14,532 nt of DNA, taken from the IMG/VR virus record IMGVR_UViG_2529293249_000005, one strand, 5' to 3'. The stretch comes from a virus. Lineage: Duplodnaviria > Heunggongvirae > Uroviricota > Caudoviricetes. The position numbers and the translations under genes were made by a program. This document shows, one piece after another, positions 1-2,250 of the stretch; the first letter of the stretch is position 1; each line of letters opens with the position of its first letter. Under the pieces are notes generated by a model. It was not told the origin of the DNA, ran no database searches, and was given only the letters and a program-made list of their open reading frames with translations.

Positions 1-263
1 GGAGAGAAGTCTTTCAGGCCAAGCTGCTTACGATAGGCATCCCACCAACGGGAAAGAAGCTGGTAACGTCCGGCCGCTGTTGATTTGAGTTTGGGGTTTA
101 GCGTGACAAGTTTGCGAGGGTGATCGGAGTAATCAGTGAATAGCTCTCCGCCAACAATGACGTCATAACCATGATTTCTGGTTTTCTGACGTCCGTTATC
201 AGTTCCCTCTGACCACGCCAGCATATCGAGGAACGCCTTACGTTGATTATTGATTTCCACCAT
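1..263 (-). CDS. R: Endolysin R (lambda-type lytic transglycosylase), N-terminal part only; gene continues past the left edge of the window
   Basis: Minus-strand translation from ATG at 263 gives [62 protein letters not shown]..., which I recognise as lambda R. Start overlaps the S stop by 17 nt as in lambda. ORF is shorter than the track threshold so I translated it by hand. Confidence 0.9.
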
Positions 264-570
264 CTTCTACTCCGGCTTTTTTAGCAGCGAAGCGTTTGAT
301 AAGCGAACCAATCGAGTCAGTACCGATGTAGCCGATGAACACGCTCGTTATATAAGCGAGATTGCTACTTAATCCGGCGAAGTCGAGAAGGTCACGAATG
401 AACCAGGCGATAATGGCGCACATCGTTGCGTCGATTACTGTTTTTGTAAACGCACCGCCATTATATCTTCCGCGAAGGTACGCCATTGCAAACGCAAGGA
501 TTGCCCCGATGCCTTGTTCCTTTGCCGCGAGAATGGCGGCTAACAGGTCATGTTTTTCTGGCATCTTCAT
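247..570 (-). CDS. S: Class I holin S (lambda S107/S105 type)
   Basis: 107-aa [25 protein letters not shown]... matches lambda S as I recall it. Met-Lys-Met dual-start motif (antiholin from Met1 at 570, holin from Met3 at 564). Sits immediately upstream of R. Confidence 0.95.
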
Positions 571-1024
571 GTCTTACCCCCAATAAGGGGATTTGCTCTA
601 TTTAATTAGGAATAAGGTCGATTACTGATAGAACAAATCCAGGCTACTGTGTTTAGTAATCAGATTTGTTCGTGACCGATATGCACGGGCAAAACGGCAT
701 GAGGTTGTTAGCGCAACCCCCTGCCACCCGCTTTCACGAAGGTCATGTGTAGAAGGCCGCAGCATAACTATCACTGATGAATTCAGGATAGCCAGAGGCT
801 ACGGCTCAGTTTGGGTTGTGCTATTGCTGGGCGGCGATGACGCCTGTACGCATTTGGTGATTCGGTTCTGCTTCCGGTATTCGCTTAATTCAGCACAACG
901 GAAAGAGCACTGGCTAACCAGGCGCGCCGACTCTTCACGATTATCGACTCAATGCTCTTACCTGTTGTGCAAATAAAAAAAGCCACCGTTGCAACTTAAG
1001 AGTCACTAACGGCAGCTTACATCT

Positions 1025-1537
1025 TTAAACGGTATGATATTTCATTCTGGCTGCCTCAAAAGCCGCAGCGGCAAGTTCGGCAGTGTCATGGTATCCAAGG
1101 TTAATACACTTTCCAGACGCATTAATTCTTGCTCTCCATTTCCCGTACTTAGCATCCCAAGACACGCCACGGTATCCAGATTTATTATTCTTCTGAATTT
1201 TCCTGTTTTGCATATTTTCGGAATGAGTGACAAGACGAAGATTTGATATCCGGTTATCTGTTCTTACCCTGTTGATGTGATCAATAAAACCATCGGGCAT
1301 GGTGCCATAAACAATCAACCATGCCAGTCTGTGAGCAGGGTATGCTTTACCATTAATCATAATCATTAAATACCCATCAGAATTTATTGATGAGCATTTC
1401 TTGAAAGCAAAACGAGAGTTCCATGTCAAAGTGGTCCTCTCTCTCCCCTGCCTCCATCTCCAGTGAAAGTCGCCTGACGATGGATTGTAATCAACAACAG
1501 AAAGCACCATTTCTGGCGTTAATTTTATTTCTTTCAT
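1025..1537 (-). CDS. HNH endonuclease with C-terminal AP2-type DNA-binding domain (homing-endonuclease-like)
   Basis: 170-aa ORF. HNH core ...HINRVRTDNRISNLRLVTHSENMQN... followed by an AP2-like segment SGYRGVSWDAKYGKWRARI...GYHDTAELAAAAFEAA. Lies between the late terminator and S. Family call from motif recognition only. Confidence 0.7.
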   Translation of the reverse strand: MKEIKLTPEMVLSVVDYNPSSGDFHWRWRQGRERTTLTWNSRFAFKKCSSINSDGYLMIMINGKAYPAHRLAWLIVYGTMPDGFIDHINRVRTDNRISNLRLVTHSENMQNRKIQKNNKSGYRGVSWDAKYGKWRARINASGKCINLGYHDTAELAAAAFEAARMKYHTV

Positions 1538-1658
1538 CGCTTTACCTTAGGGATAGAGCCTGTTCGCGTAGATATGACAGCCAAGAGCGGAGCGATGTTT
1601 CCACCACCATATCTCAGGCCCATATCACTAAGACTCTTGTTTTGATTGCACGCGAATG

Positions 1659-1683
1659 CAAAAAAGCCCACAGGAGGTGGGCT
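1659..1683 (-). terminator. Intrinsic terminator downstream of the late promoter (tR'-like)
   Basis: On the minus strand: GCCCACCTCCTGTGGGC hairpin (plus 1666..1682) followed by TTTTTT (plus 1660..1665). About 50-60 nt downstream of the putative late promoter. Confidence 0.55.
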
Positions 1684-1724
1684 TGTGATGGTTGCTGAAT
1701 GCAAAAGCAGCAGCATATGTGAAT

Positions 1725-1754
1725 ATTATGGCTAAATGGCTAATTGCATGTCAA
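1725..1754 (-). promoter_or_regulatory. Putative late promoter pR' (with Q-utilisation site expected nearby)
   Basis: Minus strand TTGACA (plus 1749..1754), 18-nt spacer, CATAAT (plus 1725..1730). The -35 lies in the 3' end of the Q ORF and the -10 just past the Q stop. Confidence 0.45.
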
Positions 1755-2250
1755 GGTTTTTAACAGCAACATGCTTAACTTTCTCAACACGTTTACGCAT
1801 TTTGAAAGCATTTTGCATTGGCTGGTACAAAACAAATAATGACGCTTTCAGGATGTCGTCAATTTCGTTTCTACAGGTTGCCAGTGAAGGTTTTCTCCAT
1901 CCCTCGCCACCACGTCCACACATCTTGCGTGGCTTTGCAGTCGCGTGATAGTAGGATGCAATTGCTCGCTTAGATGAACCATGAGCGTAGTAGCTGAGGA
2001 GGATGCCAAAGGCTTTCTTGTCAATGTACATGACGGAATCGACGACCTGAGAAATCAACATTCCATCATCATCATTGCACATTGGCCTTGTCATAACTCT
2101 TCCCGGCTCTACGCTCTCCATGAACTTCGCTATTACGCTGCTCATGCGCTTTTCCAGACGACCTGAATAAACCCATGCGCCCCACAGTTCAAGCCAGCCA
2201 TTCAGCCACTCATGCTGTTCTTTGGTGAGGTTTAGTTCTCTTATGCCCAC
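1732..2250 (-). CDS. Q: Late-gene antiterminator Q (non-lambda Q family)
   Basis: 172-aa ORF directly after ninI and directly before a promoter-plus-terminator unit, the canonical Q position. Sequence does not resemble lambda Q as I recall it. Assignment rests mainly on synteny. Confidence 0.6.

Follow-up and report, generated by a model that had tools for sequence, protein, structure and literature searches.

A putative late homing-type HNH-AP2 endonuclease cassette in the Q antitermination leader of a lambdoid prophage

Results

Gene order between Q and the holin gene

The window, i.e., the whole stretch of 14,532 nucleotides analysed here, is lambdoid prophage DNA and is 100% identical to positions 3231105-3245636 of Escherichia coli DETEC-E601 (NZ_CP116176). 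Its late-control genes lie on the minus strand in the order NinI-like phosphatase, Q, late promoter pR', an ORF of 170 aa and holin S. The features of the region are as follows:

1732..2250, minus strand: Q antiterminator gene, 172 aa, Sf6/HK75 type (Pfam Phage_antitermQ, E 1.1e-25)
1725..1754, minus strand: late promoter pR', overlapping the end of Q; 11/12 match to the consensus, homologous to the annotated pR' of HK75 and Sf6
1730..1745, minus strand: candidate Q-binding element of two 8-bp direct repeats, proposed from the sequence
1021..1724, minus strand: segment of ~704 bp that is extra relative to Sf6, HK75 and Huey (alignment)
1712..1717, minus strand: TATGCT, candidate sigma-dependent pause element, proposed from its offset
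1658..1684, minus strand: predicted first intrinsic terminator, tR'B (terminator scan, fold)
1535..1659, minus strand: conserved leader of ~125 nt from the T-tract to the ATG (alignment, RNAalifold, pair counts)
1025..1537, minus strand: ORF of 170 aa, predicted HNH(N)-AP2 endonuclease (Pfam, AlphaFold2 model, Foldseek)
975..1018, minus strand: predicted second intrinsic terminator, tR'A (fold; annotated as tR' in HK75 and Sf6)
247..570, minus strand: holin S of the lambda family with a dual start, the next gene of the late operon (Pfam Phage_holin_3_1, E 2.4e-30)

The order of the cassette is the candidate Q-binding repeats with the pR' -10, a start region of the phage 21 type, terminator 1, the leader, the HNH-AP2 gene, terminator 2 and S-R-Rz. 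In the preliminary description, which was made from the sequence alone, an HNH gene had been assigned to the late-operon leader between Q/pR' and S, and the neighbouring genes identified with Pfam bear this out. The gene had also been placed between tR' and the holin. This is correct as far as the interval from Q to S is concerned, but the gene sits between two terminators and the resident tR' is downstream of it, because the insert brings its own terminator and the tR' of the insert-free allele resumes after the stop codon.

No tRNA genes were found in the window with ARAGORN; in Sf6-type relatives, tRNA-Asn and tRNA-Thr follow tR'. Between the second terminator and the S leader, the minus strand has a long inverted repeat (GTAAGAGCA…TGCTCTT) at 880-960, and at the equivalent position HK75 and Sf6 have tRNA genes or tRNA-like remnants.

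The HNH-AP2 protein

The ORF (1025..1537, minus strand) is intact, starts with ATG and has a Shine-Dalgarno sequence, AAGG, 8 nt upstream. Pfam domains were recognized at residues 66-110 (HNH_3, E 2.1e-18, 66.1 bits against a cut-off of 24.8) and at residues 120-167 (AP2, E 1.6e-8, 35.1 bits against a gathering cut-off of 33.3). The AlphaFold2 model of the 170-aa protein has a pLDDT of 91.8, and its AP2 part consists of strands at 125-150 and a helix at 153-167. In the Foldseek search of this model, the top PDB match was I-HmuI (1u3e; E 9.6e-4, prob 1.00), and the next matches were plant AP2/ERF domains, e.g., AtERF1 (1gcc; TM 0.68 on the target, rmsd 1.7 A). The HNH nuclease with an AP2-like tail that had been read from the sequence is thus supported by both profiles and by the fold matches.

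Inactivating substitutions at the HNH catalytic residues were sought in an alignment of 24 homologues, and the catalytic set was found to be complete. Residues D86, H87, N89, N99, L100, R101 and N111 are invariant in this alignment, H69, N95 and N108 are at least 90% conserved, and the window protein has all of them. The DH...NLR...N motif aligns with that of I-HmuI, with D86, H87, N99 and N108 matching up. The characters of an HNH_3/I-HmuI-like His-Me finger, i.e., beta-beta-alpha-metal with the Asp-His base, the Asn and the metal-ligand Asn/His, were all found, and so were those of an AP2/ERF domain, i.e., a three-stranded sheet on a C-terminal helix and a profile match above the gathering score. 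The dN/dS ratio was 0.22 against a lineage with 96% identity and 0.04-0.07 against a lineage with 76% identity, and the gene is under purifying selection. A pseudogene reading was rejected on the complete catalytic residues together with these ratios.

Judging from sequence and model, the protein appears to be an active I-HmuI-like HNH ('HNN') nuclease fused to an AP2 DNA-binding domain. HNN plus AP2 is the architecture of free-standing phage homing endonucleases, and HNN-AP2 genes have been described as free-standing, mobile-looking genes of phages (PMC2248197). In I-HmuI of SPO1 (PDB 1u3e), the best structural match, the D-H...N-L-R...N catalytic motif matches residue for residue; however, I-HmuI is an intron-encoded HNH homing/nicking enzyme with other C-terminal DNA-binding modules, whereas the window protein is free-standing, has an AP2 domain and shares ~20% identity with it. 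The HNN-AP2 endonucleases of Xanthomonas phages Xp10, Xop411 and OP1 and of Felix O1-like and T5-like coliphages have the same two-domain architecture and the same boxes HRLAWL, P, DH, DNR, NLR and EN (PMC2248197), and with 42-45% identity they are the nearest relatives in cultured phages apart from HK629. They are found at varied sites in lytic phages, whereas the lineage of the window is tied to the putatively Q-dependent late leader of temperate lambdoid phages. The gene as such is ordinary: HK629 and RefSeq already label it 'HNH endonuclease', and genes of this kind are common in phages.

HK97 gp74 is an HNH protein that stimulates cutting by the terminase. The HNH protein of the window also belongs to a tailed phage and would be expressed late, and it could be considered a DNA-packaging accessory of the same kind, yet such a role is highly improbable. 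The HNH family is a different one (HNH_3/I-HmuI-like plus AP2), the gene lies between Q and S and does not adjoin the terminase, it is found in phages with lambda-type (HK629) and with Sf6-type terminases, and most relatives with the same packaging genes do not have it. Genes of the HK97 gp74 type adjoin and co-vary with one terminase/portal module, and this was not the case for the HNH-AP2 gene. The packaging reading was rejected on gene context and on the varied packaging modules.

Comparison with insert-free relatives

The two junctions were placed to the base in a five-way alignment of the window and HK629, which have the insert, with HK75, Huey and Sf6, which do not. In the insert-free allele (…CCATTTAGCCATAAT TAGAAG GTAAGCTGCCGTTAG…), the promoter -10 is followed by six bases and the annotated tR' hairpin, and the empty site in HK75 and Sf6 can be written as …CCATAAT/TAGAAG/GTAAGCTGCC…. 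The window and HK629 have …CATAAT ATTCACATATGCTGC…(~704 bp)…TAAAGAT GTAAGCTGCCGTTAG… instead, i.e., ~704 bp (1724..1021) replace the 6 bp TAGAAG of Sf6, HK75 and Huey. The left junction (1725/1724) is directly after the pR' -10, so that the start-site region of 6 bp is replaced, and the right junction (1021/1020) is 4-8 nt past the stop codon and 8 nt before the Sf6/HK75-type tR'. When HK75 was used as the query, the match in insert-bearing genomes broke at its positions 158/165.

In Sf6, HK75, Huey and CUS-3, the Q gene and the S leader are ~98% identical to those of the window and the HNH ORF is missing. Since the gene is absent from close relatives with near-identical flanks, the insertion that had been supposed in the preliminary description is confirmed as an indel polymorphism. 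It had, however, been given a junction at 705..720 and a lambda-like S leader from ~705 onward, and neither was recovered: the alignment with the insert-free phages sets the right junction at the position given above, and the similarity to lambda (96.7%, BLAST) already begins at 981, in the T-tract of the second terminator, and continues downwards from there. The mosaic joint with lambda (window 975-981) falls exactly at the terminator T-tract, and lambda is aligned from its position 44775 onward, which we take to lie immediately beyond the tR' annotated in lambda itself. It seems that modules are bounded by the T-tracts of terminators.

Late promoter, Q and terminators

The late promoter has a -35 TTGACA (1754..1749), an 18-nt spacer and a -10 CATAAT (1730..1725). 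The 8-bp direct repeats AATTAGCC and ATTTAGCC abut the -10, the 21-type promoter has CATTGAGC and AAATGAGC, and across loci the type of repeat co-varies with the type of the Q C-terminal part. Residues 1-93 of the window Q are identical to crystallised Q21 and the C-terminal part is diverged (phmmer against PDB 6jnx/6p18). The designation 'Q21-type' was rejected for the window Q: crystallised Q21 matches the 162-aa Q of the IMG/VR loci L052-L054, and the window Q is a relative of the Sf6/HK75 type.

TATGCT lies 7 nt past the -10, at the same distance as TAAGCT in the allele without the insert; the concept of the sigma-dependent pause element (SDPE) and its position are those of 10.1101/651190. 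Both tR'B and tR'A are predicted as terminators. The former has an 8-bp GC-rich stem (AAGCCCAC/GTGGGCTT), a 5-nt loop and T6 in the terminator scan, and the leader including tR'B folds at -21.5 kcal/mol (z -3.3), with a small hairpin between TATGCT and tR'B. The latter is a 17-bp hairpin followed by T7 (-20.2 kcal/mol, z -3.2). The parts of a Q-dependent late cassette, i.e., a Q-binding element (QBE), an SDPE and a terminator before the late genes, are all found at sequence level.

In Hafnia phage yong1, which has a 21-type leader with neither an HNH gene nor tR'A, the late promoter is directly followed by a sequence with ~80% identity to the 65-nt start region with the first terminator. In L052-L054, the 65-nt unit follows the 162-aa Q, which is one residue off crystallised Q21, and its own promoter, and therefore the part 1724..1658 of the insert is a leader of the phage 21 type. 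In the insert, the initial transcribed region and the first terminator correspond to the leader found behind a Q with 99% identity to Q21, as in the Q/pR' cassette of phage 21, whereas in the window this leader is joined to a promoter and a putative QBE of the Sf6/HK75 type. From these comparisons the late-control region of the window is a natural chimera, in which an Sf6/HK75-type promoter with its repeats is joined at the -10 to a 21-type start region and terminator (cf. L052 2230-2330). It was reported that the Q21 binding element is a direct repeat with two 8-bp subsites within -40..-1, and that Q21-loaded complexes were obtained with -40..-1 of pR'21 and an artificial cassette with the pause element at its native position (bioRxiv 10.1101/651190). 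Since the Q21 template needs -40..-1 and an SDPE in place (10.1101/651190), the chimeric pR' should, by analogy, still load the window Q. The chimera bears on the question of how modular Q loading sites are. As the insertion is not clean and a second late leader is carried along, the insert could have been built by ordinary/illegitimate recombination between two Q-type phages.

The constitutive pR' of a lysogen should make an RNA of ~55-60 nt that ends at the first terminator (window 1658-1718). The equivalent short pR' transcript of Stx phages is reported to be a regulatory sRNA (PMC7547250). The promoter scan gave no promoter-like site inside the cassette leader (minus strand, 1660-1538), and the cargo gene is not preceded by a sigma-70 promoter of its own as a moron would be.

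In HK629, the hexamer tctacg (L001 2190-2195; window 1572-1567) is labelled 'putative late promoter pR'' in GenBank. This label is not credible, as the hexamer lies inside the conserved leader and is a poor match to either consensus hexamer. In HK629, the sequence homologous to the pR' of the HK75 and Sf6 annotations lies 170 nt upstream of tctacg and overlaps the end of Q.

The conserved leader

The leader (~125-137 nt; window 1659..1535; L008 1946-2090) has a hairpin TTGCA-TTCGCG-TGCAA, a helix CAAGAG/CTCTTG and a CATCGC that is complementary to the GCGATG containing the HNH start codon. With the 17-mer TCTACGCGAACAGGCTC and a second independent pattern, it was found in about 100 IMG/VR stretches (L066-L173), in approximately half of which it is not next to an HNH gene of the window type. 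It also precedes KilA-N proteins (Pfam E 2e-17), a 220-aa family and other HNH-AP2 lineages, and it was seen truncated before another gene; in every case a different hairpin plus T-tract terminator is located just upstream of it. The leader remains 88-97% identical when HNH lineages are compared in which synonymous divergence has reached saturation. As the leader also precedes KilA-N genes, the cassette format is not nuclease-specific.

Covariation was analysed in 21 distinct sequences. Two pairs of the 5' hairpin (NNGCA-UUCGCG-UGCN'N') show compensatory changes, the helix C[A/G]AGAG/CUCU[U/C]G has one compensatory pair (A:U in 13 sequences, G:C in 8), and CAUCG[C/U] pairs with the start region [G/A]CGAUG in 21/21, with a single compensatory change. 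In the leader helices 98% of the cells were paired, vs 20-60% in slid controls. The covariation score was equalled in 0/500 shuffles, and since the changes track two or three clades the number of independent covariation events is small. A scan of metagenomes with a loose pattern gave mostly chance matches (10 of 120 were real by nhmmer), and the leader alignment is therefore shallow. Neither leader type matched any family in Rfam.

A long irregular stem proposed by RNAalifold was not adopted because of its lack of double compensations, and the shorter, compensated helices were counted instead. Similarly, a 60-aa ORF (1716..1534) that overlaps the HNH start (ATGA) is considered non-coding, since in-frame stops are present in Pantoea L061 and E. 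coli L063 and the nucleotides are conserved.

It is proposed only tentatively, from the sequence comparisons, that the leader may be an undescribed cis-regulatory RNA of enterobacterial phage cassettes. As a translational gate or switch, the leader could keep the expression of toxic or selfish cargo low; as a portable linker, it could equally well serve for the exchange of cargo genes, and it may do both. It may represent a new conserved RNA element common to different phage cassettes.

Distribution and diversity of the insert

HK629 alone encodes the HNH-AP2 protein among 50,697 phage records. The insert was detected in 41 of 5426 complete E. coli genomes with at least 99.2% identity (two copies truncated and one on a plasmid) and in 39 IMG/VR loci. 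Spacing was checked in 47 loci (8 E. coli, 39 IMG/VR), and the layout and the site were the same in every one. Upstream of the insert these loci represent at least three contexts (ninH/rusA, ninI, ninG), and downstream at least five, among them tRNA-Asn/Thr, lambda-type or P22-type holins and a TerB/nanS-type region. The insert-free allele is represented in hundreds of E. coli genomes and, in IMG/VR, in at least 120 loci; the insert is present in ~8% of comparable E. coli late regions. Presence and absence at one fixed site in homologous genomes, as in a homing gene, was therefore observed. A scan with the exact leader 31-mer and a protein pattern gave no match in the species-representative genomes.

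Ten copies of the insert showed 0-9 differences in 707 positions and their Q genes 3-16 in 526, i.e., diversity is approximately four times lower in the insert than in the adjacent Q gene. When the alleles of Q plus promoter (526 bp) were compared, the mean pairwise differences were 11.7 among the 38 insert-linked alleles, 12.9 among the 85 insert-free alleles and 12.7 between the two sets. There was no association of insert status with Q allele (96/500 in label permutation); one Q allele was found both with and without the insert, and the nearest neighbour was insert-free for 26 of the 38 insert-linked alleles. No co-conversion tract was visible in the left flank within these adjacent 526 bp. 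The cassette is young, and the backgrounds across which it has spread, or onto which it was recombined, are older and diverse. The low diversity together with an unlinked flank fits homing and fits a recombination-driven sweep as well.

The cassette might on the other hand be a moron-like accessory module that is shuffled by homologous recombination, with the nuclease serving the phage, e.g., by nicking host or competitor DNA late or by exclusion, and with no homing involved. This explanation is less likely than homing, even if several of the results agree with it. The flanks are conserved substrates for recombination (Q on the left, tR'A and the S leader on the right), the Q alleles are fully shuffled relative to the insert, the gene is under strong purifying selection and has stayed in the same slot for long, and the same leader is found before KilA-N genes, which do not encode nucleases. 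Nuclease genes are reported to mark recombination boundaries often (PMC10448857). However, the low diversity of the insert relative to its flank and its presence in ~8% of late regions suggest recent spread rather than neutral shuffling. Moreover, no promoter is detectable in the cassette, unlike in classic morons, and the domain architecture is that of homing/nicking enzymes.

The plasmid pCDF6_2 (178,896 bp; L011 2481-3716) carries the whole Q-HNH-tRNA-lysis region. Truncated copies were seen in E. coli NCTC9112 (L005 2501-2761) and in the PhiR12 phages (PV340549-PV340554). In these copies, the leader is present and the HNH ORF ends after its first 68 nt, from where unrelated DNA leads to a nanS-type esterase region.

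Diverged homologues in the same position

Homologues with 62-76% identity were found in two metagenomic lineages, Pantoea anthophila and E. coli, and all are located directly after a Q of the Q21 family and before the lysis genes. In L063 and L064, which have a 21-type context, the leader, the HNH gene and its own terminator are inserted in a yong1-like empty site, precisely where the tR' T-tract ends. The location between tR' and the holin that had been given for the window is therefore right for these loci and wrong for the window itself. In a Pantoea phage whose Q is different, the HNH gene is likewise followed by a tR'A-like hairpin, which may thus belong to the cassette or to the recipient.

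Because such homologues occupy the same slot, the HNH lineage has long resided in this niche, besides being inserted sporadically. It had been stated beforehand that a gene conserved as a resident in related phages would speak against insertion; the 62-76% homologues do point to long residence in the same slot, but the gene is still inserted sporadically. Since these homologues persist under strong purifying selection, a function useful to the phage is possible, in place of a purely selfish one.

In E. coli WCHEC115106 (L006 2470-2600), the 21-type leader/terminator is fused at GGCTTTTTT to the sequence that follows tR'A and there is no HNH gene. This allele is probably a deletion between the two terminators, a natural variant by loss of the cassette. 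If such deletions occur, as this strain indicates, the polarity could also be the reverse: the HNH arrangement would be ancestral, and the short pR'-TAGAAG-tR'A leader would be a deletion in which the 3' terminator of the cassette was kept as tR'. The tR'A-like hairpin after the HNH gene in three diverged lineages, including the Pantoea phage with a Q21-type Q, agrees with this, as does the finding that the 21-type leader accompanies several QBE types. Such a history is nevertheless unlikely. Alleles without the insert are much more frequent and vary more, and the insert copies are nearly identical. A simple deletion via the microhomology TA[T/A]GCTGC would keep ATTCACA, not TAGAAG, and in Hafnia phage yong1 the 21-type leader exists with neither the HNH gene nor tR'A.

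Discussion

A homing-type or late-expressed nuclease would be the most reasonable reading of the locus as far as the sequence goes. More specifically, a free-standing homing-type endonuclease cassette, expressed late under Q, is favoured with a probability of roughly 55%. In the lysogen, the constitutive pR' transcript would halt at terminator 1, and the nuclease would be silent because the transcript stops there. After induction, Q would load at the pause site and RNA polymerase would pass both terminators, with the nuclease as the first late product after Q read-through. The pairing of the leader helix with the start codon may throttle translation of the nuclease further. The most likely target for nicking or cutting by the nuclease would be a related phage or prophage in the same cell, either at its insert-free allele or in DNA nearby, and repair from the cassette-bearing genome would copy the cassette in (homing). 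Of this scheme, we infer the start site, the pausing, the Q dependence, the cleavage specificity and the homing.

The interval between pR' and S in lambdoid phages is known to hold stx and other cargo, which is silent in the lysogen and expressed on Q read-through. The window cassette is in the same slot and would follow the same logic; unlike in the case of stx, its cargo is a nuclease that lies upstream of the resident tR' and has its own leader and terminator. The logic of the stx slot is dealt with in PMC7547250.

Homing endonuclease genes of T-even phages are restrained by terminators, RNA processing and hairpins that sequester the RBS (PMC2988022). Among these, mobE and others resemble the cassette, as predicted from its sequence, in being intergenic, free-standing HNH genes with terminators, RNA structure over the start and late expression (PMC2988022). 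However, mobE belongs to another HNH subfamily and its homing is proven, whereas the window cassette would depend on Q antitermination and its homing is putative.

On this evidence, the small, seemingly selfish HNH-AP2 gene is integrated into the Q antitermination leader in an unusually tidy way. HK629 or the window prophage, taken against HK75, Sf6 or Huey, would make a clean pair for homing, with flanks of at least 98% identity and an empty site that is exact to the base, and such a pair would let homing be tested in temperate lambdoid phages.

The nin region of related prophages has more HNH_3 or HNH-AP2 genes (L014 1163-1672, L016 495-1061, L061 959-1549, L063 1776-2297). One of these nin-region genes overlaps the start of Q, and such phages collect several nuclease genes.
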